A DNA stretch of 64,000 nucleotides from a bacterium (GTDB taxonomy: Bacteria; UBA8248): contig OZ244713.1 of NCBI GenBank assembly GCA_965218885.1, positions 3,128,638 to 3,192,637 of the forward strand. The letters are read 5' to 3'. Made by a program: the position numbers and the translations under genes. The notes under the pieces are model-generated. The model ran no database searches. It saw only the letters and a program-made list of their open reading frames with translations, and was not told where the DNA came from. This document shows positions 2,007 through 46,813 of this stretch, one piece after another; within the stretch, counting starts at the first letter, position 1, and each line of letters opens with the position of its first letter.

Positions 2007-2193
2007 CGCACCAAAGCGGCAAACAAATTCTCGCTTCTCACTCGGAATTGATATTCATCAATCGCGTTTGACGCTCCCGCGCATCGGTCTGGATTGACGA
2101 AGCGCGCGGTCCTTCTTTATAGTCATTAGCATCACGAGGCGTATGAAAACGCTCCCGCATTGGTCGCGTTTTACCATCGCCAAGGAGAAACGC

Positions 2194-2460
2194 ATGACGA
2201 CGTATGAACACCTGAATCTCACCATCGCCTTCCTGAGCCTCCTCGCCTCCTACGGCGGCCTTGCGCTCATCTACTACGGCATCCGCGTCATGGCGAAGGG
2301 CGCCGAAACGCGCGCGGCCGACTCCGAGCGCAAGCACGAGCAGGTGATGACCGCATCCGAGCGCAGGCATGATGAGGCCATGGCGTCCCTGCGCGAACTC
2401 ATCGACGGGCAGGCGGAAAGCCGCATGGCCCTGCGCCAACTCATCGAGCGAACCGGATAG
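2194..2460 (+). CDS. Small single-TM protein, copy 5 (88 aa, two repeats)
   Basis: Paralog with two 11-aa repeat units. Confidence 0.6.
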   Translation: MTTYEHLNLTIAFLSLLASYGGLALIYYGIRVMAKGAETRAADSERKHEQVMTASERRHDEAMASLRELIDGQAESRMALRQLIERTG

Positions 2461-3760
2461 CGAACCAAAGCGGCAAACAGAATTCCTCTCTCCTCGGTCG
2501 GAAGAATTCCTCTCTCCTCGGTCGGAATTCACCACACTCGGGAAAGCCTGACTTGATCAGTCGGCAAACGCTCTCGCATTGGTCGCGTCAAACAAATCCT
2601 CGCTCCTCACTCGGATTTGATATTCATCAATCGTGTTTGACCTTGGGGGTCATAGCCTACATAGAAGGAAGGAGAACCACTCCCCCTTGAGGGTCAAGCC
2701 CGATTGAAGAATGAGGGATTGTCGGCAAGACGAGGACGAAGTCTGAAGTCGCGTCGGTGGGGGGTCAATCGCGACTGATGAAGGAGCGATTGCTGCGAAC
2801 GAGGAAAATAACAATACGCAATTCCTCGCTCCTCGCTCGGAAGAATTCCTCTCTCCCCGGTCGGAATTCACCCCCACCGGTTCGCTTGCGGGCTTGCGCC
2901 CTTACCTCACCGACAATCCCTCATTCTTCAATCGGGAAACCCTCCTTCCTCAGTCGGGTTTCACCCTCAAGGGGGGAGTGTTTCTTGCTCTTTCATCGAC
3001 CGCGTCAAACCCTCGTTCATCGGGGCTTTTTCAACAACCCCGCATTGGTCGGAATTGATCCTCTTGCCGTCATTCCGGCGAATGTTGGTGGCAACCGACA
3101 GGTTGACCAGAGCCGACTGGAATGCGACATCGCATGACGTTCAAAAGGACGGCCTCAAAGAGGATAAATCAAAAAGCAAAAGGCAAATTCCCTGGATTCC
3201 GGCATCCGCCGGAATGACGAACCAAAATCGTCAAACGCTCCCGCATTGGTCGGAATTCATCACATTGGTTGGGTTTGGCGCGCAATTCCCCGCATTTGGC
3301 GTCGCCGCGTCCGCAACGGGATGCGCGAGAATCCGGTTCGTAAACGCAGTTTCCCGCTTGCACTTGAGCATCATGAGGAAGGCACGATGAAAAAGGGAAT
3401 TTCAGGGGATCATTTCTTCCGCACGCACCTGGCGAATCCCTCGCGGCGGTCGCAATCGCATTTGGCGGACCTCTCGCTCTACCCGCAGGCCGACGGCTCC
3501 GGCGGGGCGATGGAACTCTCAGGCCCCTTCGAGGACGCGCAAACCGCAATCGCTTCTTCATCAGTCGCGATTGACATGAAAAATACGATAAATATCGATA
3601 AATACATGAAAAGGTTTATGGCTCGAACTATCATGGTAATATATTATAATTCATATAATTGTAGATATATATTAAAGTAACATATTAGGAAATTATCGAA
3701 ATTTATCGAATTAAAAACTTTTTTCAAACCCCGCATCAGCCCGCATTTCCCCGCACGGGC
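2460..3760. repeat. Gene-free block of nested hairpin and inverted-repeat (MITE-like) elements ending in an AT-rich tract
   Basis: GGAAGAATTCCTC direct repeats. Inverted copies of a CCCTCAAGGGGGGAGTG hairpin module at 2667-2740 and 2903-2975. Inverted CGTCATTCCGGCG / CGCCGGAATGACG arms at 3060-3075 and 3205-3225. An AT-rich TATCGATAAATA tract at 3575-3720. No ORF here has recognisable features. Confidence 0.7.
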
Positions 3761-3766: not shown

Positions 3767-4300
3767 TCATCTCTTCAGCAGCCACACGCCGTCCTCGCCA
3801 TCCAACTCGCGCATCCGCACCTGGATGTGCTCCTGCAGCGATGTGGGCACGTTCTTGCCGATAAAATCGGGCCGAAACGGCAATTCCCTGTGGCCGCGGT
3901 CTATCAGGGCGGCGAGCCAGATTTTACGGGGCCTGCCCAGCTCCATCATCGCGTCGATGGCCGCGCGCGCCGTCCTGCCCGTGAAGAAGACGTCGTCCAC
4001 CAGGAATACACCCCGATCCGTCAGGTCGAAATCGATGAGCGTGGGCTCGAAACCGCGCCCCTCGGTGGGGTGCCCCGCGTCGTCGCGGTGGACGCCGATG
4101 TCGAGCGCGCCCAGGGGGGGCGAAATGCCTTCGAGTTCCTCGATATGCCCCGCAAGCCGCCTCGCGAGCGGTTCTCCCCGGGTGAGCACCCCGATGAGAG
4201 CGATGTTCTTATCCGCCGCGCACGCCTCCATCATCTCGGAGGCGATTCTCTTGAGCGAGAACTCGAGCTCTTGCGCCGTCATGATGGATATCGGAGCCAT
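3767..4300 (-). CDS. pyrR: PyrR-family bifunctional pyrimidine regulator / uracil phosphoribosyltransferase (orphan copy, no attenuator)
   Basis: 177 aa with a PRTase fold ([21 protein letters not shown]); closely resembles the pyrR at 39481. It lies downstream of cca with no PyrR-binding leader. Confidence 0.85.
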   Translation of the reverse strand: MAPISIMTAQELEFSLKRIASEMMEACAADKNIALIGVLTRGEPLARRLAGHIEELEGISPPLGALDIGVHRDDAGHPTEGRGFEPTLIDFDLTDRGVFLVDDVFFTGRTARAAIDAMMELGRPRKIWLAALIDRGHRELPFRPDFIGKNVPTSLQEHIQVRMRELDGEDGVWLLKR

Positions 4301-17802: not shown

Positions 17803-18948
17803 CTAGGATTTTCTTCTGAGTTGCACCCTTTTGCTGCCCGTGCCCTCGCTCTGCGCCTCGCCCCGGCGGCGGTGGCGGATGAGTTCGGCGACGATGGCGA
17901 CCCCGATCTCTCCCGGCGTATCGGCGCCGATGTCGAGCCCTATGGGCGCATTGACGCGATCGATGAGGTCGCTTCGGTCGTAGCCCCTGTCCTGAAGATG
18001 GCGATAGGTGAGCAGCACCTTGCTTTTGGAGCCAATCATCCCGATGTAGCGCGCGGGTGTCTTCATCGCCCATTCGAGGACGACCTCGTCGTTCGAATGT
18101 CCCCGGGTGATGATGGCGAGATAGTCCGACTCGTCGACCGGAATTTTCTCGAAAATTTCAGGAAATTCTCCGACGTAGAACGACTCCGCCATCGGGAAGC
18201 GCTCCTTGTTGGCGAACGAGGGTCTGTCCTCGACAATCGCGACCCGGAAACCTGCGAGGTAGGCCGCCTGCGACACGCAGAATGAGACGTGACCGCCGCC
18301 GAACATATAGACGAGCGGCTGGCCGGTTATGGGTTCGACAAAAATTTCGGTCGCCCCTTCGAGCGTGGGCCTTTTTCCGCCCTCGCGCCCGGCGTCCCGG
18401 TTGAACTGCAAGAGAGTAGGACTGCCGTTGCGGATGATTTGCGTGCTCTCCGCCCAGATTTCCGTTGAATAGTTGGGAATCTCGCCCACCGCGCTGCCGT
18501 CGCGCCTGAAGAGCATTTTTCTGGCTTCCGGCGTCGGTACATCGAGTTCGCCGGGCTGAACGATGGTCGCCAGCGCCGCGCTGCCGCCCTGGTTTCTGAT
18601 CTGGTTGATCTCATCGAGCAGCTCTTCCTGAAACGCCTGGAAGGGTTCTACGAGTATTTCCACGACGCCGCCGCAGATATGCCCGCTGTCTTCGGCTTCC
18701 TGCTGGGTGAGGTCGAACTTGAGCTTTTCGGGTTCGCCCGACTCGAGGACGCTCATGGCGGTTTCCCAGACCTCGGCCTCGAGGCAACCGCCGCCTACTG
18801 TGCCTTCCGTGCTGCCGTCCTCGCGCACGAGCATCTTCGCATCGCCGCTCATGGGCGCGGACCCCTTGCGGGCCACGACGGTGGCGAGCGCGCCGCTCTG
18901 GCCGTCTTCCTTGAGTCTCGCCATTTCCCTGAATACGTCCTTGCTCAT
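17803..18948 (-). CDS. xdhC: XdhC/CoxI-family molybdenum hydroxylase accessory protein
   Basis: XdhC/CoxI N-terminal and Rossmann-like halves (ATVVARKGSAPMSGDAKMLV, YMFGGGHVS). The probable start is MSKDVF at 18948. Confidence 0.8.
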   Translation of the reverse strand: MSKDVFREMARLKEDGQSGALATVVARKGSAPMSGDAKMLVREDGSTEGTVGGGCLEAEVWETAMSVLESGEPEKLKFDLTQQEAEDSGHICGGVVEILVEPFQAFQEELLDEINQIRNQGGSAALATIVQPGELDVPTPEARKMLFRRDGSAVGEIPNYSTEIWAESTQIIRNGSPTLLQFNRDAGREGGKRPTLEGATEIFVEPITGQPLVYMFGGGHVSFCVSQAAYLAGFRVAIVEDRPSFANKERFPMAESFYVGEFPEIFEKIPVDESDYLAIITRGHSNDEVVLEWAMKTPARYIGMIGSKSKVLLTYRHLQDRGYDRSDLIDRVNAPIGLDIGADTPGEIGVAIVAELIRHRRRGEAQSEGTGSKRVQLRRKS

Positions 18949-18979
18949 TTTCCGCTCCGCTTGCGTGGAATTGCAGTTG

Positions 18980-19807
18980 TTACGCATCCGGTATGATCCG
19001 TATGAATACTTCACATTCGTTGTTCATACAAGACGTGAAGAGGATGCCGTCCGCCGGACCATGAGGCTTTCCGGCCAACTCCCATATAGTATAGGCCGTT
19101 TTCTTTAATTTTTCCACCGAGGTTTCCAGATCGGCCTTGTTGATGACGATCCACTTGCGCGCGCCGGCCTCCACCTTGTGAAAAAGACCGGAGGGATGCG
19201 CGCACAATCGCCCGACTGCCTCGGCCGTTATCTCCTCGCCCTCTCCCAGGCAGCATATGCGTGAAAACGCCTCGGGACGAAAAACATGCGCCTCGCTCAG
19301 GGGCGCGCCCACCGCGTCCAGCCCCACGACGCCCAGCACGGCGTCAAGGCCTTCGGGGAGTACGGGTTCATCGGGACCCGGCGCCTTGATGGGCAATCTT
19401 CTCGCGCCGTCCGCCTCGATGAGCGTGAGGGCGCCGCTGAGCTTTACGCGCGCGATTTCTTGAGGCGCGAAGCCGCTCAACTTCATGCGCTGCTCACTCT
19501 CCTGGCCCGGAACCGGGACTTTTCCCTCTCGTCTGCGGGCGAACCAGGAGATTCCGCATTCGTTCATGTAAGACTTGAGGTTTTTGGAGAGCGTCTCTAC
19601 GTCGCCCAGTGCGAGTTGAAGCCCTTCCTCGGGGAGTGGCGCGAAAATATTGGTGGTCGTCGTGAGAATTGCAGGCTTCCCGTTTTGCGCATGGAAGCAT
19701 TTGGCGAGGGCCGTCAGCAGGCTCGTCTTTCCGCCCCCGCCGACCGCCGCGACGCATTGGCCCGGCCCGATGCCGAGAGAGTGAACGATGTCGTCTTCCG
19801 CTACCAA
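18980..19807 (-). CDS. yqeC: YqeC-family selenium-dependent hydroxylase accessory protein
   Basis: About 275 aa with an N-terminal P-loop VAAVGGGGKTSLL, typical of the YqeC family. Sits next to xdhC. Confidence 0.65.
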   Translation of the reverse strand: MVAEDDIVHSLGIGPGQCVAAVGGGGKTSLLTALAKCFHAQNGKPAILTTTTNIFAPLPEEGLQLALGDVETLSKNLKSYMNECGISWFARRREGKVPVPGQESEQRMKLSGFAPQEIARVKLSGALTLIEADGARRLPIKAPGPDEPVLPEGLDAVLGVVGLDAVGAPLSEAHVFRPEAFSRICCLGEGEEITAEAVGRLCAHPSGLFHKVEAGARKWIVINKADLETSVEKLKKTAYTIWELAGKPHGPADGILFTSCMNNECEVFIRIIPDA

Positions 19808-21573
19808 GTGTGGCTCTCCACGCCGCCGAGCAGTTCGCGCCTTAGAATGTTCACGAGTTCGGTGGAAAGCTGGGAGAGGTCCTTCACCACGATGTGGTTG
19901 GGGTAGATTTGCTCGACGAAGGGGTCCACCACGCCGACGCCGATGACGCGGACGCCGAGCTTCTGGAGCCGGTTCACCGTGTTCACGAGGTGGGACGCAT
20001 CCCCGTTGGGCTGGCCGTCCGAGGTGATGATGATGATTTTCTCCTCCTCGGGCCGCTGGATGAGCCTCCGGTAGGCGAAGAGCAGGTGTTCCTCGTCCCA
20101 GTTGTTGAAGCGCGGATAGATGTTGACGAGCCTGTTTTTCACCTGGGCGAAGTGATCCTCAAAACCCTTGTAGATGCGGTGTTGCAGGGGAGAGTGCCGG
20201 ATGTGTCGGAACTTGAACGCGGGTATGTGGCCCAGGGCCGCCGCCATGGCGGCTTCTGAACTCTCGGTGGAATAGCCGATGACCTCGAAGGGCACGTCGA
20301 GACGATCGAGCGCTTCGGCGAAGAATATGGTCGCCTCCCTGGCGGCCATGTATTTCGACTCGCGGTTCATGCTGCCGCTTTCGTCTACGAGCAGCGTGAA
20401 GCACACGTCGAGCTTGTCGGGTTCTTCTTTCCGGTGGAAGAGATGGAATTTCCCCAGCCGCTGTTTCCACAGCTTCGGGAGGTTCAGCTTGCCCGAGCGG
20501 TGCGAGCCGCTGTAGCGGGTGTAGGTTCTCTCCTGGATGATCTGCATGAGTTTCCACACCAGCACCTTGATGTGGCTGCCCGCATTGTCGATGACCGCCG
20601 CGTATTCCTCGGCCTTCCCCTCGGGCGGCAATACGATGGTCCGCTCGTCGGGATGATCTGCGGTGGGGTGAATTTCCTTTTTGTTGCCCTCGAGTTCGAA
20701 CCAGGGAGCGGCCCAGTGCCCGAGCGCGGCGAGTTCCTCTGGACTCAGTTCGACCTCTTCCCCCACGTCCTCCTCGTCGATTTCCTCGGCCGCTTCGGGG
20801 TGCAGCATTTCGAGTGGTTCGTCGTCTTCGCCCTCGAGGTTTTGGCTCTCGATTTTCTGGAGAATTTCTTCGGGAATCTCCGAGAGGTCCTGATCCTCGC
20901 TCATCCGGGCGAGTTGTTCTTCGGTGAAATAGCGCTGGATGGCGTCATAGATTTCATTGGCGCAATCGAAGGCGGTCTTGGGGTCATCGGCGGCGCAGGC
21001 GCGATCTATCAGCGGAATGAGTCTGTGAAAAATCTGAACGACGGCGGAGTCGAACCAGGCCGCCGGCAAATCTCCGGGCCGCGAGGAGGGGACGCCGGGC
21101 GTCTGCCCGATCCCGGCGAGGTAAAGCCCCCATTGGATCTGCAAAAACAAGGGGAGTTGTCCGCTCATCTGGTTGCGCTCGGCCGCTTCGATGGCCGGGA
21201 GAATGAAGGCGCGGAAGTTTTTCTTGGTGCCGGGAAGCGATTCCGCGAGGCGGTTTTCGCACCGCGCGTCCTCGAGCGTGTGCCATATGTGGAACAGGCC
21301 CGGTCTTTCGCGGTTCGCGAGCGCGGCGCGCCCCGCCCAGCGGAACGTCCCCTGTATTTTGTGGGCCACCTCGATGAGCGTCATGCCCTTCTGGTATCTG
21401 AGCACGTGCTCGTCGTTCAGCCCGCCGCCCAGACGAGCCAGGGTTTGTTCGGGGTCTTCGACGTGAATGGCGTCTTCCCCGTTCTTCGCCTTGGGGCCGA
21501 AGCTCAGGGCGAGCTCGTAATCGTGCGCGGTCACCTGCGCGAGCGCTTCGAGACGGGCGCGTCGGCGCTCCAT
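19801..21573 (-). CDS. vWA-domain protein (CoxE/NorD/CobT-like partner of a MoxR ATPase)
   Basis: MIDAS LLVDESGSM with a C-terminal vWA fold. Lies immediately downstream of the AAA MoxR gene. Confidence 0.8.
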   Translation of the reverse strand: MERRRARLEALAQVTAHDYELALSFGPKAKNGEDAIHVEDPEQTLARLGGGLNDEHVLRYQKGMTLIEVAHKIQGTFRWAGRAALANRERPGLFHIWHTLEDARCENRLAESLPGTKKNFRAFILPAIEAAERNQMSGQLPLFLQIQWGLYLAGIGQTPGVPSSRPGDLPAAWFDSAVVQIFHRLIPLIDRACAADDPKTAFDCANEIYDAIQRYFTEEQLARMSEDQDLSEIPEEILQKIESQNLEGEDDEPLEMLHPEAAEEIDEEDVGEEVELSPEELAALGHWAAPWFELEGNKKEIHPTADHPDERTIVLPPEGKAEEYAAVIDNAGSHIKVLVWKLMQIIQERTYTRYSGSHRSGKLNLPKLWKQRLGKFHLFHRKEEPDKLDVCFTLLVDESGSMNRESKYMAAREATIFFAEALDRLDVPFEVIGYSTESSEAAMAAALGHIPAFKFRHIRHSPLQHRIYKGFEDHFAQVKNRLVNIYPRFNNWDEEHLLFAYRRLIQRPEEEKIIIITSDGQPNGDASHLVNTVNRLQKLGVRVIGVGVVDPFVEQIYPNHIVVKDLSQLSTELVNILRRELLGGVESHTW

Positions 21574-21587
21574 GACTCATCTCCCGG

Positions 21588-22472
21588 CTAAAAGTGGTTG
21601 TCTACGATGTCCTCGAGCACTTTGGCGTCGAAAGAGTTGACCTTGCTGAAGATGGTCGAAACGGCGGCTTCCATCGGGTTGAACTGAGCCGCCATGCGCG
21701 CCCAGTCGATGAGACGCCTGGTGCTGAACGTGCAGAATACCTTTTCGTTCTGCATGGCCTCGCGCACGTCGTGGCCCACGCGCACCATGCGCTTAATCAG
21801 CTCCTCGTCGCGGTTCCCGCTTTGCTGCATGATAACCTCGACTTCCGCATCGAAGGGCAGGTAGTTCATCTTCACGGTGACCGGAAAGCGATCCAGCAGC
21901 GCTTCGTTCAGGGGCTTCGTGCCGCCGTATCTGCGGTCCTCGTGCGGGTTCATGCTGGCGAAAAGCCTGAAGTTCGGATGGGGCTTGACGATGCGGCCGT
22001 CGTATTCCGATAAAACGATCATGCGGTCATCATCGAGCAGGCTATGCAGGCAAAAGGCGATTTCGGGCAGACACGCATTGATCTCGTCGATGAGCAGCCA
22101 GTCGCCCGATTGCATGGCGTCGACCAGAATGCCGTTCACCCAATAGGTGCCCTGTTCGTTGATCATCAGCTTGCCCACGAACTCATCGACCGTGGTCATG
22201 CCGTTTAGGTTCACGCGCCGGAAGCCGTTGTTGGTCATGTGGGCGAGATGGCGCACCGAGAGAGTTTTGCCGACGCCTGTCTCCCCCACGAGGAGGACGG
22301 GCAGGTTCTGGCTCACCGCCCACGCGATGCGCTCGAGCGCATCACCCGCCGCCAGGTAGAATTGCGCGGGTGGAACGAAGGAGTTGCCGTTGGTTTCGTT
22401 GATGGGAATTTCACTGCGCCCGATGCTGTAGGCGCCGTTTTCCACCGTTTCGGTCAAGATTTCGGTACTCAA
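21588..22472 (-). CDS. MoxR-like AAA ATPase (CoxD/NorQ/CbbQ family, AAA_5)
   Basis: Walker A LLVGETGVGKT and Walker B LLIDEINAC; 294 aa. Confidence 0.85.
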   Translation of the reverse strand: MSTEILTETVENGAYSIGRSEIPINETNGNSFVPPAQFYLAAGDALERIAWAVSQNLPVLLVGETGVGKTLSVRHLAHMTNNGFRRVNLNGMTTVDEFVGKLMINEQGTYWVNGILVDAMQSGDWLLIDEINACLPEIAFCLHSLLDDDRMIVLSEYDGRIVKPHPNFRLFASMNPHEDRRYGGTKPLNEALLDRFPVTVKMNYLPFDAEVEVIMQQSGNRDEELIKRMVRVGHDVREAMQNEKVFCTFSTRRLIDWARMAAQFNPMEAAVSTIFSKVNSFDAKVLEDIVDNHF

Positions 22473-23323
22473 TTCGCATACTCCATGGCTGAAACGCCGA
22501 ACAGAAACATCATGATGGCCTCGAGCGCCCCGCCGCCGATGGCGCGCGATTTATCGGATATCGTGTGGCAATGAACGGGCTCGGCCCTCGGGTCGACGTC
22601 GCCCACCTTAAAGCCCGCGCTCACCTCGATGCCGTCTCTCAACAGTCCGCGCAAGACACCGTCGATGGCGGAGCGCACCTCCGCGCGATTCACACGGGCG
22701 ACGGCCTCTCCCGCGCTCACCACATCGCCGATCTTGGCGATGGACGTAAATATACCGGCTTGGGGCGCGCGCAGCAGCCGCTCTGTGGTGTAGCCGCCGA
22801 TGGGGCCCGGAACGCCCGTGTTGGGCTTAGCAGCGCCCTCCAGAATTACCCGCCCCAGGTCGTGTCCCCGAGAAGTCTCGATGACGGCGTGGCAATCAAC
22901 GCCCGCGGTGAAGCCCGGCCCCAGGCCGATGACGACCTCCGCATCGTCGATGCGCGTGCCGAGGTTTCGCTTGGCCAGAATCGCATCGACCACGACGGCG
23001 GGCCGAACTTGCGCGACCACCTCGGCGCGCGGGTCCACCATCACCGGAACGATGCCCGCCTCCAGGATGGCGCGCGCGCTCGTCGCTTTTTCCGCAGGCG
23101 TTTCGCCGTCCGCCCGGGCGGAGGTTACACCCTCTACTTTCCACTCATCCGCATACAGGCACTCGGCGAAGGAAACGGTGCGCCTCACCATGGTGGGGTT
23201 CTCGATTTCGGTGATCATGACCGGAAAACCCGCGCGGTGTAAGCGATGCGACACGCCGGTGGCGAGGTCTCCGCCTCCCTTGACGAGCACGAGCGTCTCG
23301 GCAATGGACCTGCGGTTGCTCAT
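22469..23323 (-). CDS. yqeB: YqeB-family selenium-dependent molybdenum hydroxylase system protein
   Basis: About 284 aa, a Rossmann-like N-terminus (VKGGGDLATGV) and a GVPGPIGGYTTERLLRAP region. Assigned by family resemblance from the read sequence. Confidence 0.55.
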   Translation of the reverse strand: MSNRRSIAETLVLVKGGGDLATGVSHRLHRAGFPVMITEIENPTMVRRTVSFAECLYADEWKVEGVTSARADGETPAEKATSARAILEAGIVPVMVDPRAEVVAQVRPAVVVDAILAKRNLGTRIDDAEVVIGLGPGFTAGVDCHAVIETSRGHDLGRVILEGAAKPNTGVPGPIGGYTTERLLRAPQAGIFTSIAKIGDVVSAGEAVARVNRAEVRSAIDGVLRGLLRDGIEVSAGFKVGDVDPRAEPVHCHTISDKSRAIGGGALEAIMMFLFGVSAMEYAN

Positions 23324-24023: not shown

Positions 24024-24629
24024 ATGGGAAAATTGCCAAAGTTCGACATGGACGAGGTTTTGACCAAAGCAATGGACCAGTTCTGGCGTCACGGCTATTC
24101 GGCAACGTCGATTCGCGATCTCGAGAACGCAACAGGCCTATTCCGAGGGAGCTTATACCACGCCTTCGGCGGCAAGCGCGAGATGTTCTTCCGGGCGCTC
24201 CGCCGTTACGACCAACTCTACCGGGAGACCCCGATAAAGGAACTCGAAAAGCATCCCTCGCCGCGACAGGCGGTGTTGTCCGTGTTCGAGGCCGCCTTGG
24301 AGGTGACGAAAAACGGTTCGAGCGACGGCTGCCTCGAAGTGAACGTCGCCCTGGAGCTTGGTGCGCACGATGCGGAAGTGGCTTCGTTCGTGGCCGGCGC
24401 GTTCGCCGGCATGCAGAAGTTTCTTCGCGCTTGCATCGAGCGGGGCCAGGCCTGCGGGGAGATTTCTCCCGAAGTCGTTCCGGACCAAACGGCGAAGTCT
24501 CTGCTCGGTCTGTTCCTCGGGCTCAGGGTGCTGGCGCGCGTTTCTCCCGATGAGAGCTTTCTGCGGTCTATCGTTAGCCAAGCCGAGGCCCTCTTGCCGC
24601 CGCCGACCCCGGTTTCTCAGGTTTCGTAA
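24024..24629 (+). CDS. TetR/AcrR-family transcriptional regulator
   Basis: N-terminal HTH (GYSATSIRDLENATGLFRGSLYHAFGGK); 201 aa. Divergent from ridA. Confidence 0.85.
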   Translation: MGKLPKFDMDEVLTKAMDQFWRHGYSATSIRDLENATGLFRGSLYHAFGGKREMFFRALRRYDQLYRETPIKELEKHPSPRQAVLSVFEAALEVTKNGSSDGCLEVNVALELGAHDAEVASFVAGAFAGMQKFLRACIERGQACGEISPEVVPDQTAKSLLGLFLGLRVLARVSPDESFLRSIVSQAEALLPPPTPVSQVS

Positions 24630-24775: not shown

Positions 24776-25852
24776 TCAGCCTGCCTCTATCTTCCGGGTC
24801 ACAGAGCGCGTGGGGCCGAAGGTGGGCATGTGGCACGAGTGCTTGCCGGCCCCGCCCGTCACGATGAGGAGTAAGTCTTGGGGCCCGTCGAGAAGCGGGA
24901 TCTCGAAATCGTCGTCGCCTTCGTTTTTCGCTATCTCCTCGCCCCAGGTCTGCATCCCCCACATGGCGCCGCGCTTTAACTGGCGCACGGGTTTTCGGGC
25001 GAGCTCGAAAATTCTCTGCTTCACGTCCGCTTTCGTGAGGCCGTCCCCCGCTATGGTCGCCGCGTGCTCGGGGCCGAGGGCGAGAACGGGTTCGCCGCGC
25101 AGATAGAAATTGTTGCTCCCCATGATGGACATGGTATCGGCGGCGGTGGCGAGAATCCCCTCCGCCGTGTGGCTCACGTGATCGTTGATGTTGTGGGGTC
25201 CCTCGCAGCCCACGAGCGTCACCACACTCTCCTCAGGCGCAAACCCGCGCTCTACGTGCAGCGGCTCCCAGGGGGAGGCTTCTTCGTTCTCGGCGATGCA
25301 GAATGCGTATTTCGCAGGCGATCCTTGCGTGGCGCGATCCAGAACGCCGGGGCTCGCGCCGCCTACGTTCAAAAGCGCGAGTCGCATCGCGCGGCCTATC
25401 GTCGCGTTCGCCCGGTTGCCGGGGGCGAAGCATCCATATTCGGCGTTGAGACCGATTTCCTCGACGATGGGGCCGTTCACGATGATGAGAGGCGCCACCG
25501 GGTGGGTCGTCGCCTGAATCGCGTGGAGCGAGAACTCGGGCTCGAGCACCGCCCGGACCGCTGCCACGAGAACGGGCATGTACGCCGGGAGGCACCCGGC
25601 CATCACGGCGTTCACGGCGAGTGCTTCGGCAGTGATGATTCCTTGTCGAGGCGGCATGAGGCCGATTTCCGCATCAGGGGCCAGTCCCGCGCCCTCCACC
25701 ATCCGGGCGACGCGCTCGGGCGTCGGGGGAACGACGGGCAGGCCGTCGCCCCATCCCCGGGCTTCGAGCAGGCGCGCCATCGCCTCGGGCGTGTCGCGAA
25801 CTTTCACGCGCTCGCTTTCAAGTGCAAGATTTTCCTGAGAGTGGTCGTTCAT
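24776..25852 (-). CDS. Conserved hypothetical protein (358 aa) co-transcribed with the UGSC selenoprotein gene
   Basis: ATG at 25852 overlaps the selenoprotein stop by 14 nt. No family recognised. Confidence 0.5.
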   Translation of the reverse strand: MNDHSQENLALESERVKVRDTPEAMARLLEARGWGDGLPVVPPTPERVARMVEGAGLAPDAEIGLMPPRQGIITAEALAVNAVMAGCLPAYMPVLVAAVRAVLEPEFSLHAIQATTHPVAPLIIVNGPIVEEIGLNAEYGCFAPGNRANATIGRAMRLALLNVGGASPGVLDRATQGSPAKYAFCIAENEEASPWEPLHVERGFAPEESVVTLVGCEGPHNINDHVSHTAEGILATAADTMSIMGSNNFYLRGEPVLALGPEHAATIAGDGLTKADVKQRIFELARKPVRQLKRGAMWGMQTWGEEIAKNEGDDDFEIPLLDGPQDLLLIVTGGAGKHSCHMPTFGPTRSVTRKIEAG

Positions 25853-25865: not shown

Positions 25866-26474
25866 CTATGCGAAGAGCGCCTTGTGGCGCACCGTCTTAC
25901 GGGGCGGGACGTATTCGCGCTCGCGGTATTCTTTTCGGAGCGATTCGGCATCGCTCGTGAGTATGCGCCGCACCTCGTCCATCGCGCCGTCTCCCAGAGA
26001 GCGCGCTTTTTCGGGCGGAATTCCTCCCACCGGATGCGCCACGACGACTATCGGGAGGCCGGGCATCCCCAAAGCCGTTCTCTCGTTCGCGCCCAGGGCC
26101 GAAAATTCACTGGAGCAGAACGTGGCCGTCGGAACGCCTGCCTTTTCCATCTCCACCGAGTCATGGATACTCCATGACGTGCAACTCCCTCAGTCGCCCA
26201 CCGCGCAGACTGCCACGTCGATTTGTTCGAGGAATTCTTCGAGGCGGTCCTCCGGCAGGGTCGGGTTCGGCTTTCCCCAGCGGATGAAGCGCAGTGTCTC
26301 ATCCTCCCGGGAAAGGAGTTCTTCGATTCGCTCGAGCAGGACGTCGGCGTTCGGCTTGTTGTTGTGGAAAAAGCCGATTCGGAGTCCCCCCAGGTCTTCG
26401 GGGCGCTCCGCCAGGGGGTGGTCGCCCGAGCGAACGAAGGAGGTGGGTGTTACGATTTCAATCATCTGGCTCAT
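25866..26474 (-). CDS. UGSC-motif selenoprotein (about 202 aa; in-frame TGA at 26190-26192 decoded as Sec)
   Basis: Two ORF-track ORFs (26190-26474 and 25866-26156) lie in the same frame separated only by TGA. The readthrough gives ...CAVGD-U-GSCTSW... A hairpin GUCAUGGA-GUA-UCCAUGAC (plus strand 26160-26178) starts 11 nt after the UGA. Confidence 0.7.
26160..26178 (-). ncRNA. SECIS-like stem-loop (8-bp stem, GUA loop) downstream of the in-frame UGA
   Basis: Perfect palindrome gtcatgga-tac-tccatgac. Its position and loop G are compatible with a bacterial SECIS. Confidence 0.55.
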
Positions 26475-26503
26475 CTCGAATCTCCGTAATGGGGAACTTG
26501 AAC

Positions 26504-26760
26504 TATAAACTCAATAAATTCTGGGCGATGACCATTCGCTGAATCTGGTTGGTTCCCTCGATGATTTGCAGTTGCTTGGCGTCTCTCATGAACCGCTCGA
26601 GCGGATGGTCCTTCATGTAGCCCGCGCCGCCCAAGACCTGAACGCCGTCCACGGCGGCCTTCATGGCGGCGGCTCAGCTCATACACCGTCTCGCCCAGCA
26701 TCAGCTGGGCTTCGCTAAGTTCGAACGCGCCTTGAGAGCTTGGCTTTCCTGTCACCTCCG
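26504..26760 (-). pseudogene. Acyl-CoA dehydrogenase paralog remnant: N-terminal ~28 codons joined out of frame to C-terminal ~58 codons
   Basis: FELSEAQLMLGETVYELSRRH matches the intact gene's N-terminus (FDLDETQKMLRQTVRELSERY). MKAAVDGVQVLGGAGYMKDHPLERFMRDAKQLQIIEGTNQIQRMVIAQNLLSL* matches its C-terminus. The frame changes at the junction near 26650 and a GGAGGTGA RBS is retained. Confidence 0.75.
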
Positions 26761-26768: not shown

Positions 26769-27941
26769 CTAGAGGTCGAGCAAGTTCCGGGCGATGATCA
26801 TCCGCTGTATCTGGCTCGTTCCCTCGACGATCTGGATTTGCTTGGCGTCGCGCATGAATCGTTCGAGCGGGTGGTCCTTCATGTAGCCCGCTCCGCCCAG
26901 GACCTGAATGCTGTCTATCGCGCACTTCATCGCCATGTCGGCCGCATAGGTCTTGGCCGTCGAGAAATACCTGGCGTTCTCCTTGCCGATTTGCCCCGCA
27001 TCCACCATGGCGGCCGCGCGGTAGACGAGCAGCCGCGCCGCCTCGATGTCCATGAACATGTCGGCGAGCATGAACTGCACGGCCTGGTGCTGGGCGATGG
27101 GCTTTCCAAACGCCTCGCGCTCCTTGGCGTAGTTGGCCGCGTAGTCGAGACAGCCCTGGGCCAGACCCACCGCGCGCGAGCCGATGGCGGGCCGCATCTG
27201 GTTGAAGCCGATCATCGCGGTCTTGAAGCCCTGGTTCAACTCACCCACCTGGTACTCGAGCGGGACGGCCACGTTGTCGAGATTCAGCATGCAGGTCGAG
27301 ATGCCCCGCATCCCCATCTTGCGCTCGTGCTTGGCGACGCTGAAGCCCGGCGTGTCGGTGGGCACGATGTAGTAGGTGATTCCGCGCGTTCCCGCGTGGG
27401 GGTCGGTCTTGGCGGCGACGGTGATGAAGTCCGCCTTGTCGGGCCCCGTGCAGAAGCACTTGGTGCCGTTGATGACCCATTCGTCGCCCTCTTTGACGGC
27501 GCGCGTGCGGATGTTGCCGGCGTCTGAGCCCGCGTGAGGTTCGGTGAGGGCGTAGGAGCCTCTCAACTCGCCTTTGGCGAGGCCCGTCATGTAGTGGTTT
27601 TTCTGCTCCTGCGTGCCGCTCAAGTCGATGACGCGGCTCGAGAGCATGTTGAGCACGATGAAAAGAGGGGAGTTCGAGCAGACGCGCGCGATCTCCTCGA
27701 TGGCGATGCAGCCGCCCAGAAAGCCCATTCCGCCGCCCCCGTATTCCTCGGGGAAGAAGATGCCGAGCAGTCCGTATTCTTTTTGCAGTTGGTAGATGTC
27801 TTCTGGGTATTCCTCGTTCTCGTCGATGTCGGCGGCTCGCGGGGCGATGTAGCGCTCCGAGAGTTCGCGGACCGTCTGGCGAAGCATCTTTTGCGTTTCG
27901 TCGAGGTCGAATTGCAGCGTGGATTCCGTTTGCAGGCTCAT
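26769..27941 (-). CDS. Acyl-CoA dehydrogenase
   Basis: 390 aa with the ACAD fold and the C-terminal LGGAGYMKDHPLERFMRDAKQIQIVEGTSQIQRMII motif. Confidence 0.9.
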   Translation of the reverse strand: MSLQTESTLQFDLDETQKMLRQTVRELSERYIAPRAADIDENEEYPEDIYQLQKEYGLLGIFFPEEYGGGGMGFLGGCIAIEEIARVCSNSPLFIVLNMLSSRVIDLSGTQEQKNHYMTGLAKGELRGSYALTEPHAGSDAGNIRTRAVKEGDEWVINGTKCFCTGPDKADFITVAAKTDPHAGTRGITYYIVPTDTPGFSVAKHERKMGMRGISTCMLNLDNVAVPLEYQVGELNQGFKTAMIGFNQMRPAIGSRAVGLAQGCLDYAANYAKEREAFGKPIAQHQAVQFMLADMFMDIEAARLLVYRAAAMVDAGQIGKENARYFSTAKTYAADMAMKCAIDSIQVLGGAGYMKDHPLERFMRDAKQIQIVEGTSQIQRMIIARNLLDL

Positions 27942-39229: not shown

Positions 39230-39348
39230 TTTCCCTCTTGCTCTTTAAGGGAAAGACTGTTAGTTTTATCGAAATGGCCCGGCTGGATGCTGCGCCGGGT
39301 GGAAATGACATGGTGACATAGAAATTCCCCTTTAATGTCGTCCCGTGA

Positions 39349-39373
39349 GGCGGCGAAGGAGGAAACCCGGATG
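39349..39373 (+). promoter_or_regulatory. PyrR-binding loop in the pyr leader (UCCCGUGAGGCGGCGAAGGAGG)
   Basis: Matches the PyrR anti-antiterminator consensus UCCNGNGAGGC...GAAGGA. Lies immediately 5' of a terminator and pyrR. Confidence 0.7.
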
Positions 39374-39408
39374 CTTGCCGTCCTCTCGTCTGTTCTTAGA
39401 ACTCCATG

Positions 39409-39445
39409 CCCTTTGGGCATGGAGTTTTTTTTGTTCTTTTTTGAT
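39409..39445 (+). terminator. pyr operon attenuator terminator (gaactccatgccc-ttt-gggcatggagtt plus T run)
   Basis: 12-bp perfect stem followed by TTTTTTTTGTTCTTTTTT, 35 nt before pyrR. Confidence 0.8.
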
Positions 39446-39480
39446 ACCGGGCCGCCCGAACATCGGATTTCGCCTTGACG

Positions 39481-40005
39481 ATGAAACAACTCGATGCCGA
39501 GCAGTTAAGGCGCACCTTGAGGCGTCTCTCGCATGAAATACTGGAGCGCACGGCGGATCTGTCGGAACTGGTGTTCATCGGTATTCGCACGCGGGGCGTG
39601 CCGCTCGCGGAAAGACTGGCCGGGGAGCTTCAGTCTCTGGTGGGCGTACGTCCGCTGGTGGGCGCGCTCGACGTGACGCTCTACCGCGACGATTTGAATC
39701 AGGGAGGCGGGGTGAGAACCAGCCTCAAGAAAACGGATCTCCCCTTCTCGTGCGAGGGCAAGGACGTCGTTTTGGTCGACGACGTGCTCTACACGGGCCG
39801 GACGGCGCGCGCCGCTCTGGCCGCGCTCGTCAACTTCGGCCGGCCCCGCAGGGTGCGGCTCGCCATTCTGGTGGACAGGGGAGGGCGGGAACTCCCCATT
39901 CGCGCCGATTTCGTGGGGAAAAACATCGAAGCGATCCATCCCGAGGAGGTGCGGGTGCATCTGGAGGAAACCGACGGCCAGGACGCCGTTTTCAAACGCT
40001 CATAG
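39481..40005 (+). CDS. pyrR: PyrR bifunctional regulator / uracil phosphoribosyltransferase
   Basis: PRTase motif [18 protein letters not shown]. First gene of the pyr operon. Confidence 0.9.
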
Positions 40006-40033
40006 AAATCAAGGCGTTACGGGGGGGAGGATT

Positions 40034-41048
<1,015 letters not shown>

Positions 41049-41065
<17 letters not shown>

Positions 41066-42371
41066 GGGAGGACGCCTCATCGACCCTTCAGGCGGCGTCG
41101 ATGAGAAGTGCGATATTCTGATTGAAGAGGGAAAAATCGCGCACAGAAAAAAGAACATATTGCCGCGCGGCGGGGATGAAATCATCGACGCCGAGGGACT
41201 CGTCGTCGCGCCCGGGTTCATCGACATGCACGTCCATTTCAGGGAACCGGGGCAGGAATACAAGGAAGACATCGAGAGCGGCACCCGCGCCGCCGCCGCG
41301 GGCGGCTTCACCGGCGTGGCGTGCATGGCGAATACCGACCCGATCAACGATACGAGTTCCATCACCGAGCGCATTCTGAAGCGCACGCGCGAGGTGGGTT
41401 CGTGCCGCGTGTTCCCCATCGGCTCTGTTTCGGTGGGCCTCAAGGGTGAGGAGTTGAGCGAGATGGCCGAGCAGATAGAGGCGGGCGCGGTGGCCTTCAG
41501 CGACGACGGCGTACCCGTCAAGACGGCCGCCTTGATGCGCGCAGCCCTCGAATACGCCGGAATGCTGGGGGTGAGCGTGCTCGACCATGCAGAGGATATG
41601 ACGCTCTCAGGCGGCAAGATGATGAACGAGGGGGCGATGTCCACCCTGCTCGGCCTGGCGGGGAACCCGGCGGCGAGCGAGGACATCTGCGTCTATCGGG
41701 ATATCCGCCTCGCGGAACTGACAGGAGGCAGGCTCCACATTCTGCATATATCCTCCGCAGGCGCGGTGGACCTGGTGCGTCAGGCGCGGGCGCGCGGCGT
41801 TCGCGTGACGGCGGAGGTGACGCCGCACCATTTCTCCCTGACCGACGAGGTGATTCAGGACTTCGACTCATCCGCCAAGATGGCGCCTCCTCTGCGTGAG
41901 GAGGCGAACAGACAGGCGCTCCTGGAGGGCCTTAAGGACGGCACGATATCCGCCATCGCCTCGGACCACGCGCCGCACTACGAGGCGGAAACCCAGCGGG
42001 AGTTCGACGCCGTGCCGTTCGGCATCGTGGGCTTGGAGACGGCCGTGTCCCTCGCGCTGGACAGGCTGGTGGGCGGGGGCGTGCTCACGTTGGCCGAGAT
42101 GATCGCGAAATTCACGGCGGGGCCGTGCGAAGTGCTGGGCCTGCCCTACGGCACGCTGAAAGAAGGCGCTCCGGGGGACGTGACGATTTTAGACCCCGAG
42201 CGCAAGGTGGTCGTCGACCCCGACACTTTCGAGAGCAACGGTTCGAACACTCCTTTCGCCGGCTGGAAGCTCAAGGGTTGCGCCGTGGCCACGGTCGTTG
42301 CCGGAAACCTGCGGATGAGCAGGCTTGCGGGTGAAATGAAAATCTCCGCACAGGAGGCGCTCACTCCATGA
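41049..42371 (+). CDS. pyrC: Dihydroorotase (multifunctional-complex type)
   Basis: [10 protein letters not shown] metal site and SDHAPH motif; 440 aa. Confidence 0.9.
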
Positions 42372-43459
42372 AAGGTCGGAAAATCAAACCGGCGCTCCTG
42401 GCCCTGGAGGACGGCAGAGTCTTCCGGGGCATGAGTTTCGGGGCGGATTCCGACGTAGAAGGCGAACTCGTCTTCAACACGGCGATGACGGGCTATCAGG
42501 AGGTGCTCACCGACCCCTCCTACCGCGGCCAGATGGTGGTGATGACGTATCCCCACATCGGGAATTACGGCGTCATCCCCGGCGATGAGGAATCCCGCCG
42601 CGTCTGGGTCGAGGCGTTCATCGTGAAAGAAGTGTGCAGGCGCCACAGCAATTTCCGCGCGAGCGAAGACCTGGACACCTATCTCAAAAAAGAGGGCGTT
42701 CCCGGCATCGAGGGCGTCGACACCCGCGCGCTCACGCGCCACATCAGGGAGGCGGGCGCTCTGCGAGCGATACTTTCCTCAAAGGATCTGGACGAAAGAA
42801 GCCTCATCGCCCGCGCCCAGGCGAGCCCCGGCCTCGATGGGCGCGACATGGTGCGCGACGTCACCTGCGAGGTCGCGCACGCCTGGGGCGAGAGAAATGG
42901 CCGCCCGCTTTGCGTGGCCTATGATCTGGGGGCGAAGGACAACATTTTTCGCGAACTGGGCCGAAGGTTCGACCTCGAAATCGTGCCGGCTTCAGAATCC
43001 GCCGAGAGCGTGCTGGCGAGAAAGCCCGCCGCCGTATTCTTATCAAACGGACCCGGCGACCCGGCCGCGCTCGGCTACGTCGTGGAAAACGTAAAAAACA
43101 TCATGGGAAGGGTGCCCGTCGTGGGCATCTGCCTGGGACACCAGATTCTGGCGCAGGCTCTGGGCGGCAGGACGTACAAGCTCAAATTCGGCCACCACGG
43201 GGCGAACCACCCCGTCCAGGACTTGAGCACGAAAAAGGTGGACATCACCTCGCAGAACCACTCCTTCGCCGTCGACCCCGAGAGCCTGCCCGCAGGCGTG
43301 GCCGTCACGCATTCCTCCCTGAACGACGGCACTTGCGAGGGCTTGAGGTCGGACTCCCCCAAGGTGTTCAGCGTGCAGTACCACCCCGAGGCCTGCCCCG
43401 GCCCGCACGACGCGGGCGCGTTGTTCGATGAGTTCTTCAGCTTCTGCGTGGGGGAGTAG
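42368..43459 (+). CDS. carA: Carbamoyl-phosphate synthase small (glutaminase) subunit
   Basis: GATase catalytic motif VVGICLGHQ; 363 aa. Confidence 0.92.
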   Translation: MKGRKIKPALLALEDGRVFRGMSFGADSDVEGELVFNTAMTGYQEVLTDPSYRGQMVVMTYPHIGNYGVIPGDEESRRVWVEAFIVKEVCRRHSNFRASEDLDTYLKKEGVPGIEGVDTRALTRHIREAGALRAILSSKDLDERSLIARAQASPGLDGRDMVRDVTCEVAHAWGERNGRPLCVAYDLGAKDNIFRELGRRFDLEIVPASESAESVLARKPAAVFLSNGPGDPAALGYVVENVKNIMGRVPVVGICLGHQILAQALGGRTYKLKFGHHGANHPVQDLSTKKVDITSQNHSFAVDPESLPAGVAVTHSSLNDGTCEGLRSDSPKVFSVQYHPEACPGPHDAGALFDEFFSFCVGE

Positions 43460-43561
43460 GGAGTGCGTGCGACGGATTCGTGTAAGGACGATAAGACATT
43501 GAATCAACAGGAATTTGAAACGGCCCTTGTATTTTCCTTTTTCCAGCGGGTGGCTTGATTC

Positions 43562-46500
43562 ATGCCGAAAAGAACGGACATTTCCAAAATACTCATCATC
43601 GGCTCCGGCCCCATCGTCATCGGGCAGGCGTGCGAATTCGACTATTCGGGCGCGCAGGCGTGCAAGGCCCTGCGCGAGGAGGGCTACGAGGTGGTGCTGG
43701 TGAACTCGAATCCCGCCACCATCATGACCGACCCCGAGATGGCCGACGCCACCTACGTCGAACCCATCACGCCCAGGGTGGTGGAGGAGATCATCAAAAT
43801 AGAGCGGCCAGACGCTCTCCTGCCCACCATGGGCGGACAGACGGGGCTGAACACGGCGGTGGCGCTGGCCGAGTCCGGCGTGCTCGACGCCTGGGGCGTG
43901 GAGCTCATCGGCGCGAAGCTGCCCGCCATCCGCTGTGCGGAAGACAGGGACCTGTTCAAGAAGGCGATGCGCGAGATAGGCCTCGATCTGCCCCGAAGCG
44001 AGGTCGTCACCACGATGGATGAGGGCTGGACGGCGGCGCGCGACATCGGCTTTCCGGTCATCTTGAGGCCCGCCTTCACGCTGGGCGGCTCTGGCGGGGC
44101 CGTGGCGTTCACCGAGGAGGAGTTCGAGGCGAAACTCGCCTGGGCCCTCTCCGAAAGCCCGGTGGATCAGGTTTTATTGGAAGAAAGCGTCCTGGGCTGG
44201 AAGGAATTCGAGTTGGAAGTGATGAGGGACCTCAAGGACAACGTGTCCATCATCTGCTCCATCGAGAATTTCGACCCCATGGGCGTCCACACGGGCGATT
44301 CCATCACCGTCGCGCCCGCGCAGACGCTCTCCGACCGCGAATACCAGGCCATGCGCGACGCCGCCATCGCCTGCATCCGCAAGGTGGGGGTCGAGTGCGG
44401 CGGCTCGAACATCCAATTCGGCCTAAACCCCGCGGATGGCCGGATGGTCGTGATCGAGATGAACCCCAGGGTGTCGAGAAGCTCCGCCCTTGCGAGCAAG
44501 GCCACCGGGTTTCCCATCGCCAAGATAGCCGCCAAGCTCGCCGTGGGGCTAACGCTCGATGAGATACCCAACGACATCACGCGGCGCACACCTGCTTCTT
44601 TCGAGCCCTCCATCGACTATTGCGTCACGAAGATACCGCGCTTCACCTTTGAGAAATTCCCCGAAACGCCACCCGTCCTCGACACCCAGATGCGCTCGGT
44701 GGGGGAGGTGATGTCCATCGGCAGAACGTTCCGGGAATCGCTCATGAAAGCCGTCCGCTCGCTCGAGATCGACCGCTACGGCTTGGCGGACCCCAAGCCC
44801 GAAGAGCTCGAAGGGTTATCCGCCGATGCGCGCAAGGAGCTGATTTCAGAGAGTTTGAGGATACCCGGCCCCGATCGTCTATGGAGCGTCGCCCGCGCGT
44901 ACAGGGAAGGATGGACGGAAGAGGAGATTTACGGCGCGTCGGGGGTCGACCCCTGGTTTCTCGCGCATCTGGCCGAACTCGTGGAAATGGAAGAATACGC
45001 CGCAGCGCCCGGTCTGCTGGGCGAAGAGGCGAGCCTTCGCTTTTTGAAGCAAAACGGCTTCAGCGACCTGGACATCGCCCGGAGACAGGGCGTGGACGAG
45101 GGAGCGGTGCGTGCGGCGAGACACCGCCTGGGCGTCCGGCCCGTTTATAAGCAGGTGGATACCTGCGCCGCGGAATTCGAGGCCCATACGCCGTATCTCT
45201 ACTCGACCTATGAGCAGGAAGACGAGGCCCCGCCGACTGCGCGCGAAAAGATCATCATCCTGGGCGGCGGGCCGAACCGCATCGGGCAGGGCATCGAGTT
45301 CGACTATTGCTGCGTGCACGCCGTGATGGCGCTGGCGGAAGCCGGCTTCGAGGCCATCATGGTGAACTGCAACCCCGAGACGGTGAGCACGGACTACGAT
45401 ACGAGCGACAGGCTCTATTTCGAACCCCTCACGCTCGAGGACGTGCTCGAAATCGTTCACCGCGAAAACCCCGTGGGCGTCATCGTGCAGTTCGGCGGCC
45501 AGACGCCGCTCAAGCTCGCCCTGGCGCTCAAAGAGGCGGGCGCGCCGATTCTGGGAACCTCGCCCGAGAGCATCGATCTGACCGAGGACAGGGACCGCTT
45601 CAGCAACATGCTCAAACAACTCCATCTCACCCAGCCGCCATCGGGCACGGCCACGAACACCGAGGATGCGCTCGAGATCGCGCGCGCCATCGGCTATCCC
45701 GTTCTCATGCGTCCGAGCTACGTGCTCGGCGGGCGCGCCATGGCGCTCGTGCACGATGCGGACGAACTCGCGGCTTATATGCGGGACGCCGTCCGCGCCT
45801 CCGCCGAGCGGCCCGTGCTCATCGACAGGTTTCTGGAAGACTCCGTGGAGGTCGACGTGGATGCGGTCTCGGACGGCGAGAACGTGATCATCGCGGGCGT
45901 GATGGAGCATATCGAAGAAGCGGGAATCCACAGCGGCGATTCCGCCTGCTCGATTCCCCCCTACACGCTGGGGCCCGACATCGTGGAGGAGTTAAAGCGC
46001 CAGACGAGGATTCTGGCGAAATCACTGAACGTCGTGGGTCTCAACAACGTGCAGTTCGCCATCCACAAGCGCCAGGTCTTCATTCTGGAGGTGAACCCGC
46101 GCGCGAGCCGCACGGTGCCCTACGTGAGCAAGGTCGTCGGCGTGCCCTTCGCCAAGGTCGCCGCCCGCGTGATGGCGGGCGAGACGCTCCCCGCGCTGGG
46201 TCTCGATCACGACGTGGAGCCCAGGCATTTCGGCGTGAAAGAGGCGGTGTTCCCGTTCAAGAAATTCCCCGGCGTGGACGTGATCCTGGGACCCGAGATG
46301 AAATCCACGGGCGAGGTGATGGGTTTGGGGGAGGATTTCCCCACGGCCTATCTCAAGGCGCAGGAGGGGGCCGGCTCCGTCCTGCCGCTTTCGGGCCGGG
46401 CGTTCATCTCCGTTCGGGACGGGGACAAGGCGGCCATCATCCCCCTGGCGCAACTGCTCGTCGAACTCGGGTTCTCCCTGGTGGCGACGGCGGGCACGAG

Positions 46501-46813
46501 AGCGACGCTCATGGCCAACGGCATCGAGGCGGATTTCGTCCATAAGGTGACGGACGGCGAGCCGGGCCACATCGTGGAGCAGATGGAGGCGGGGGAGGTG
46601 CAGTTCGTGCTCAACACCACGGCGGGCAAGCAATCCATCAAGGACAGCTATTCCATACGCAGAACGGCGCTTTTGCGCAACATTTTCTATTGCACCACAC
46701 TGGCCGCCGGGCAGGCGGCCATCCGCGCCATCCGGATTCTGCGCGAAAACGATTACTCGGTGCGCTCCTTACAGGATTATCACGCAAACATGCCCACCCT
46801 CGCGCGTGTCTAG
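43562..46813 (+). CDS. carB: Carbamoyl-phosphate synthase large subunit
   Basis: 1083 aa with duplicated ATP-grasp halves and an MGS-like C-terminal domain. Confidence 0.95.

Follow-up and report, generated by a model that had tools for sequence, protein, structure and literature searches.

The 64,000-nucleotide (nt) stretch of bacterial DNA analysed here (the window; GTDB lineage Bacteria, UBA8248; assembly GCA_965218885.1, contig OZ244713.1, positions 3,128,638 to 3,192,637 of the forward strand) carries on its minus strand, at 25866..26474, a gene for a selenoprotein of the UGSC family. Since this family is already named and curated (NF041046, PF24696), the gene is a member of a known family and not a discovery. 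Taken as a whole, the observations are very probably best explained by a genuine selenocysteine (Sec)-containing UGSC protein, for which an in-frame UGA is recoded under the direction of a downstream hairpin, and which forms a two-part enzyme together with the 358-amino-acid (aa) product of the adjacent gene. A preliminary description of the region had already read the gene as encoding a selenoprotein, and this reading holds on the basis of a column in which Sec alternates with cysteine (Cys), the conservation of the frame downstream of the UGA, and the covariation within the hairpin.

The minus-strand frame from the ATG at 26474 to the TAG at 25868-25866 is open over 202 codons, Sec-95 included, except for a single TGA at 26192-26190. 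This in-frame UGA (26190..26192) is read as Sec at residue 95, the first position of U-G-S-C, based on the Sec/Cys column described below. The extent of the gene was set by translation, by the family profiles NF041046 and PF24696, and by alignment with Cys forms. A Shine-Dalgarno-like GGAG can be read from the sequence at 26482..26485 (minus strand), 7 nt upstream of the ATG. The read-through product contains ...QIDVAVCAVGD-U-GSCTSWSIHDSVEMEK..., in which the surroundings of Sec-95 are ...AVGD-U-GSCTSW..., i.e. GD-U-GSC. Frame and translation thus agree with the preliminary description, which had proposed one gene split by a single TGA, a read-through product of about 202 aa with a U-x-x-C motif, and a ribosome-binding site and ATG at 26474. 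The listing of open reading frames (ORFs) cuts the gene into two pieces in the same frame, 94 aa (26190..26474) and 96 aa (25866..26156). That standard gene callers would miss or truncate the gene, as had been anticipated, is seen in the closest database protein, P0004 (85% identical), which stops exactly at ...AVGD as a gene caller would at the TGA, and in four further Sec-form loci that were called as split or truncated pieces. A reassigned genetic code as the cause of the in-frame TGA was ruled out, because TGA is the ordinary stop codon in 13 of the 32 confident genes of the window, and the code in use is therefore the standard one.

For the family profile searches, Sec in the read-through protein was replaced by Cys. 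This version scored 142.4 bits against NCBIfam NF041046, "UGSC family (seleno)protein" (equivalog cutoff, 125), and 162 bits against Pfam PF24696, "UGSC family" (cutoff, 25), the latter over residues 6-173. Homologues in the public databases bear the same NCBI name. A "UGSC-containing protein" was first reported in 2007 (PMC1976440; Zhang & Gladyshev 2007/2008), and the family was included in the 2008 paper on the Global Ocean Sampling (GOS) data (PMC2398784); reviews up to 2026 still class it as functionally uncharacterised (PMC13188914, PMC9312934).

The codon at the Sec position was compared in two independent sets, 85 loci (L001-L085) seeded with the UGSC protein and 84 metagenome loci (L086-L169) seeded with the 358-aa partner, together about 170 loci. 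In the first set the column holds TGA in 40 loci, TGC in 42 and TGT in three, and in the second set TGA in 67 and genuine Cys codons in five. The alignment to Cys-containing homologues that the preliminary description had called for shows that in full-length homologues a Cys stands opposite Sec-95, within the invariant context G-D-C-G-S-C; over 59 UGSC sequences, G93, D94, C/U95, S97 and C98 are invariant. The Cys forms are haloarchaeal, sphingomonad and actinobacterial, while Sec forms were found in Chloroflexota, Betaproteobacteria, Binatia, Nitrospinota, Eremiobacterota and unclassified metagenome-assembled genomes (MAGs). A serine in place of the resolving Cys (C-G-A-S) was seen in one protein, P0253.

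Loss of downstream conservation had been named as one of the observations that would count against a selenoprotein. The half of the gene past the TGA is, however, conserved in frame and changes mainly at synonymous positions. Over the 107 codons after the TGA, the window differs from relative L006 (96% nt identity) by six synonymous and two nonsynonymous codon differences, and from L007 (90%) by 11 synonymous and six nonsynonymous ones, mostly at third positions. These data bear on the alternative that the locus is a pseudogene or an artefact, namely a Cys-form gene in which the TGA arose by nonsense mutation or through an error of sequencing or assembly. TGA is only one base away from TGC and TGT, the window comes from an uncultured organism, and a true pseudogene remnant, a deleted acyl-CoA dehydrogenase, lies directly upstream of the UGSC gene. 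The same TGA is nevertheless kept in L006, L007 and L001 and recurs across many phyla in over 100 independent loci, where it is accompanied by a position-locked hairpin with compensatory changes, and the downstream half evolves as stated above; an inactivated or misread gene is thus barely credible. Termination at the UGA, which would give the 94-aa N-terminal protein and a separate 96-aa C-terminal protein initiated from GTG at 26156, is highly improbable too. Just these two pieces are produced by the ORF listing and by public gene callers, but Cys-form homologues run over the junction as single continuous polypeptides, the U/C-G-S-C motif would be split between its two redox residues, and the 11 codons between the TGA and the GTG are conserved in frame.

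The recoding signal predicted for a Sec-containing protein was recognised at 26160..26178 (minus strand) as a SECIS (Sec insertion sequence)-like hairpin, GUCAUGGA-GUA-UCCAUGAC, supported by folding and by comparative pairing. It starts exactly 11 nt past the UGA and consists of eight Watson-Crick pairs closed by a 3-nt loop (-9.7 kcal/mol), so that the perfect 8-bp stem with a GUA loop noticed earlier is reproduced by folding. Perfect hairpins of such kind (8 bp, loop of 3-6 nt) occur 19 times in the 64 kb, or about 3e-4 per position. For comparison among loci, alignment columns were numbered from the U of the UGA as column 1, so that columns 15-22 pair with 26-33, and 35 distinct Sec-form sequences were examined. 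The seven inner pairs are formed in 97-100% of these sequences, and 93.6% of all cells are paired, compared with 12-58% when the partner strand is slid by 1-3 columns. Three of the pairs vary in both strands of the stem. At pair 21:27, 19 sequences have C-G and 16 have G-C, a change from Trp UGG to Cys UGC being offset by one from Val GUC to GUG. At pair 18:30, 33 have G-C, while two, both of the clade of the window, have A-U through the synonymous changes of UCG to UCA for Ser and of CAC to CAU for His; pair 19:29 is U-A in 28 and U-G in seven. Columns G23 and T24 of the loop are invariant. The partner-seeded set, with 59 distinct Sec sites, gave the same pattern, all eight pairs being formed in 49, seven in seven and six in three, and the loop being always G-U-N (GUG in 25, GUA in 22, GUC in 11 and GUU in one).

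Where Cys forms share the T-S-W residues, these are encoded by different codons (ACT TCA or ACA AGT, not ACG UCG) and only two to four of the eight pairs remain; actinobacterial Cys forms lack the hairpin altogether. Haloarchaeal Cys forms (L012, L013 and L017) keep a partial stem, a 7-bp hairpin (GUCGUGG-UGCGU-CUACGAC) at the SECIS position, 15-33 nt after the TGC, which could be either a relic of a Sec-encoding ancestor or a by-product of the codons for T-S-W-C-V-Y-D. Because the pairs covary in the Sec forms and because most Cys forms keep two to four of them or none, selection acts on the hairpin as RNA, and in essence just in those genes that have UGA as the codon.

The partner gene, encoding a conserved protein of 358 aa, lies on the same strand at 24776..25852, 13 nt 3' of the UGSC stop. 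The two genes had been described as overlapping, which proved incorrect: the UGSC gene closes with its TAG at 25868-25866, and a 13-nt spacer separates this from the partner ATG at 25852. An overlap would need a longer ORF of 391 aa starting from 25951, and this start is not backed by the homologues of the 358-aa protein. The suggestion that the 358-aa protein is a likely functional partner, on the other hand, gained support, the partner being a near-universal neighbour that is often fused to UGSC. It adjoins UGSC in 84 of the 85 UGSC-seeded loci, the exception being a contig of 1.2 kb. Conversely, UGSC adjoins the partner in 76 of the 84 partner-seeded loci, lying directly upstream in 69, downstream in six and in another arrangement in one; among the remaining loci, six have no room on the contig and two with room on both sides show no UGSC at this sensitivity. 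The commonest junction is a 4-nt overlap (27 loci). In at least 18 loci UGSC and the partner form one ORF, composed of a UGSC domain with a single in-frame TGA, a linker and the partner. Among the fusion proteins, P0246 (570 aa) is of the Cys form, and P0243 and P0244 (414 and 443 aa) are of the Sec form, each annotated from a start past the TGA. The partner domain also occurs in tandem duplication, in the absence of UGSC, in P0261 and P0314 (about 715-740 aa). The two proteins are thus nearly always encoded side by side, are usually translationally coupled, and are fused in many organisms.

The partner belongs to a very large family. A word-indexed search returned at least 8,000 matches, with 55-60% identity across phyla, and an exhaustive search gave 5,628 clusters (50% identity) at E <= 1e-3 and 1,519 at E <= 1e-30. 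Some 60 columns show no variation; these comprise, among others, C87, H117, C185, E188, H220, D224 and H263, with two Cys and three His. No Pfam or NCBIfam match was obtained when 57 members were each scanned at E <= 10, and sequence searches for solved structures gave no significant relative of either the partner or UGSC. The exact 358-aa sequence of the window has no record in the public assemblies looked up.

A structure model of UGSC was built with AlphaFold2 (AF2) from an alignment of 58 sequences headed by P0171, a Cys form 46% identical to the window protein. The model, with a predicted local distance difference test (pLDDT) score of 91.5, shows a beta-alpha x5 topology, in which the loop joining strand 3 to helix 3 carries the Cys equivalent to Sec, the second Cys being placed in the first turn of this helix. 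UGSC is therefore predicted to be a flavodoxin-like alpha/beta domain of about 200 aa. Further invariant residues, N38, K40, N42, K68, D94, H147 and P148 in the numbering of the window protein, map in the P0171 model to the C-terminal ends of strands 1, 2, 3 and 5, which would correspond to the usual ligand crevice of such folds. A thioredoxin-like fold had been suggested in the literature (2008 GOS paper, PMC2398784), along with the possibility that UGSC is a stand-alone thioredoxin-like thiol/selenol oxidoreductase, for which the link to the 358-aa gene would be incidental. The position of the U-x-x-C motif at the N-terminus of a helix fits this proposal. The mixed four-stranded sheet of the thioredoxin fold (beta-alpha-beta-alpha-beta-beta-alpha) is not found in the P0171 model, which is flavodoxin-like instead, and with the near-universal adjacency of the partner described above, a stand-alone role is considered quite unlikely. 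The flavodoxin-like fold predicted by the model corrects the earlier guess. Homology of UGSC to GrdB/PrdB (PF07355), suspected from the similar U-x-x-C context, was also rejected, no match being found in 59 members at E <= 10.

A second, paralogous Sec-form UGSC subfamily was noticed within the subset L046-L085 (for instance L068, 6211-6258), with the motif CDLAITAVGD-U-GSCSSCSVHDG. Its hosts are Nitrospinota and unclassified MAGs. In this subfamily the partner homologue directly precedes UGSC rather than following it, and genes for an EamA transporter and a methyltransferase are always found nearby. Both UGSC pairs are present in relatives of the window organism, those of L007 and L068 being on one contig.

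In the mechanism proposed, UGA-95 would not be taken as a stop in translation; the 8-bp hairpin with its GUA loop would act as a bacterial SECIS and recruit SelB with Sec-tRNA(Sec), leading to the insertion of Sec, as the comparative data suggest. By analogy with the geometry of the P0171 model, Sec-95 and the resolving Cys of U-G-S-C may cycle between a selenol/thiol and a selenenylsulfide. UGSC would then be the redox-active subunit of a two-part enzyme, of which the adjacent 358-aa protein is the larger part. The partner would bind the substrate, and UGSC would supply the selenol/thiol pair, presumably re-reduced by a cellular thiol system. The reaction may perhaps serve to break down an organic acid in the form of its coenzyme A (CoA) thioester, a suggestion made with low confidence. 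Sec insertion, the complex with the partner and the substrate are all predictions drawn from sequence.

Several observations weigh against this scheme. The 66-nt single-sequence fold around the hairpin is ordinary relative to shuffled sequences (z = -0.93), so that the significance of the hairpin rests on the comparative data, and the Rfam SECIS models gave no match to it. The 8-bp stem is perfectly paired, carries a 3-nt loop and lacks the bulged U that is present in the upper stem of the minimal SECIS of Escherichia coli fdhF; such a bulged U is not universal among bacterial SECIS elements. The structural model is that of a Cys homologue, 46% identical, and not of the window protein itself. 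Redox chemistry at the UGSC site appears not to be universally required, because some fusions have a degenerate domain without Sec or Cys, as in P0242 (553 aa), in which a UGSC-like domain has lost both positions (…AEIGGSLFG…). Neighbours beyond the partner are clade-specific, none being shared by more than 26 of the about 170 loci. Finally, the 64-kb window contains no tRNA, and hence no tRNA-Sec (selC), as searched with ARAGORN, and no selA, selB or selD as searched by NCBIfam scans of essentially all credible ORFs.

The last point is also what favours a different reading of the UGA, with Cys or Trp inserted there through near-cognate or suppressor decoding in an organism that may lack Sec machinery. 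This is very unlikely. TGA is a normal stop in the 13 window genes mentioned, and the conserved hairpin with a GU-N loop, always set equally far from the UGA, is the hallmark of recoding that depends on SelB. Furthermore, yqeB (22469-23323, minus strand; TIGR03309, 366 bits, cutoff 220) and yqeC (18980-19807, minus strand; TIGR03172, 162 bits, cutoff 73) lie 2.5-7 kb from the UGSC gene. These two genes mark the selenium-dependent molybdenum-hydroxylase trait, co-occur with selD and imply selenophosphate metabolism, and so indicate selenium use in the host. Together with the second Sec-form UGSC paralogue that is found on the same contig of the sister genome (L007, L068), they provide indirect support for Sec decoding, which remains the reading adopted here.

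The genes yqeB and yqeC belong to a cluster at 17803-23323 that also includes an xdhC-family gene (17803-19014), a CobT-like VWA protein (19801-21573) and a CobS-like AAA protein (21588-22472), all on the minus strand, and that represents the maturation genes of the selenium-dependent molybdenum hydroxylase trait. No large subunit of a molybdenum hydroxylase was recognised near this cluster. A functional tie of UGSC to yqeB and yqeC was considered and rejected; their adjacency was seen in the two closest relatives only (L006 and L007), so that the proximity reflects local synteny and not a conserved module. An amidohydrolase at 53993-55381 (plus strand) scored 193.8 bits against TIGR03314, the model of SsnA, a putative protein of selenium metabolism, below its cutoff of 455.5, and its best matches, to deaminase/chlorohydrolase models, were likewise under the cutoffs. 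A candidate for a second selenoprotein in the window, with a TGA at 58999-59001 (minus strand) within 57964-60564, turned out to be just the stop codon of a TctA-type permease. It is followed in the same frame by a TctC/Bug-type binding protein with its own Met and signal peptide, and the ORFs on both sides are long and high in GC at third codon positions (GC3).

Along the minus strand, a gene for an acyl-CoA dehydrogenase (26769-27941) comes first, then a second such gene that is deleted, and then UGSC and the partner. The second dehydrogenase is a remnant at 26471-26755 (minus strand), of which about 30 N-terminal and 53 C-terminal codons are left; compared with L006 (4806-5972), where the tandem genes of 390 and 388 aa are intact, about 905 nt are missing. 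Upstream of this group lies a divergently transcribed amidohydrolase. Beyond the partner follow a divergent TetR gene (24024-24629, plus strand) and then RidA, yqeB, the CobS/CobT-like AAA and VWA pair, yqeC and xdhC.

Clustering of ORFs over the about 170 loci was used to look for a universal third gene; none was found, the best candidate being present in 26, and only the partner is universal. This best candidate is a short-chain dehydrogenase (26 loci). Other recurrent neighbours are components of a NitT/TauT-type ABC transporter (16-20 loci), a TctC-type binding protein (18), an IclR regulator (16), an AMP-binding CoA ligase (16), an acyl-CoA dehydrogenase (11-14), an enoyl-CoA hydratase (12) and a Zn-dependent alcohol dehydrogenase (12). 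These neighbours weakly suggest, with low confidence, the uptake and CoA-dependent catabolism of an organic acid as a CoA thioester. With confidence that is about evenly balanced, we propose that UGSC and its partner of about 350 aa, as two subunits or as a fusion, constitute a widespread uncharacterised selenoenzyme, in which the partner presumably binds the substrate, and whose reaction would be a new redox conversion dependent on selenium, plausibly in organic-acid or CoA-thioester breakdown, in aerobic soil, freshwater and marine bacteria, a Cys version being used in haloarchaea and actinobacteria.

Two further features of the window were noted. At 40-2900 (plus strand) there are about five tandem copies, with a period of about 420-560 nt and 66-99% identity, of a small high-GC3 gene (94-116 aa), with conserved upstream elements and internal 33-nt repeats that encode 11-residue units of the MTDSER(K/R)H type; the gene gave no NCBIfam match. 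Two pyrR genes are present, at 3767-4300 (minus strand) and 39475-40005 (plus strand). Ahead of the second stands an Rfam PyrR binding site (39325-39434, 55.4 bits), and behind it come pyrB, pyrC, carA and carB, all within 39325-46813 (plus strand).

The gene confirms the presence in this genome of a selenoprotein family that ranks among the most abundant in the environment, and whose genes are split or truncated by callers of the Prodigal type. UGSC is best studied together with its obligate partner, which represents a very large and highly conserved family without annotation or structural relative. The natural fusions of the two provide ready-made single-chain constructs, and Cys-form pairs occur in cultivable Sphingobium, Microbacterium, Natrinema and Halorubrum, making genetics and biochemistry possible without Sec insertion. 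The definition of the partner family and the predicted fold of UGSC should thus make the long-standing question of UGSC function more directly testable.

Compared with known systems, the hairpin resembles the SelB-dependent SECIS of bacteria, of the E. coli fdhF type, in lying within the coding sequence 11 nt after the UGA and in having a covarying stem and an apical loop that opens with G-U, 19 nt past the UGA. A spacing of about 11 nt and a G-U loop are the consensus of the E. coli fdhF minimal SECIS and of bSECISearch, and SelB needs the G-U of the loop. A lower stem containing the UGA is absent from the clade of the window, whereas betaproteobacterial relatives extend the helix to the UGA. 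With respect to the selenoproteins of glycine and D-proline reductase (GrdB/PrdB), the resemblance is one of logic only, a U-x-x-C subunit acting with a partner; PrdB works within a reductase of several subunits, the substrate being held by its partner subunit. PrdB is a U-x-x-C selenoprotein as well (GOS Table 2, PMC2398784). GrdB and PrdB structures were absent from the top structural neighbours of the UGSC model, and the partner has no detectable similarity to PrdA or GrdE. In view of the missing PF07355 match and of these structural neighbours, the proteins are not regarded as homologous, and GrdB/PrdB is kept solely as a functional analogy. In GOS reads, UGSC was found fused to a conserved domain of unknown function, "Unknown_1", with a conserved Cys (PMC2398784, Fig. 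S1A). The partner, which may be the same domain, is likewise fused to UGSC, on its C-terminal side, in many loci and has two invariant Cys. Within the known UGSC family itself, the window protein shares the GD-U-G-S-C-(T/S)-S-W motif, the length class and the alternation of Sec and Cys, and shows no essential difference; Sec forms exceed Cys forms both in the GOS data (255 versus 21; PMC2398784) and in the metagenome loci analysed here (67 versus 5).
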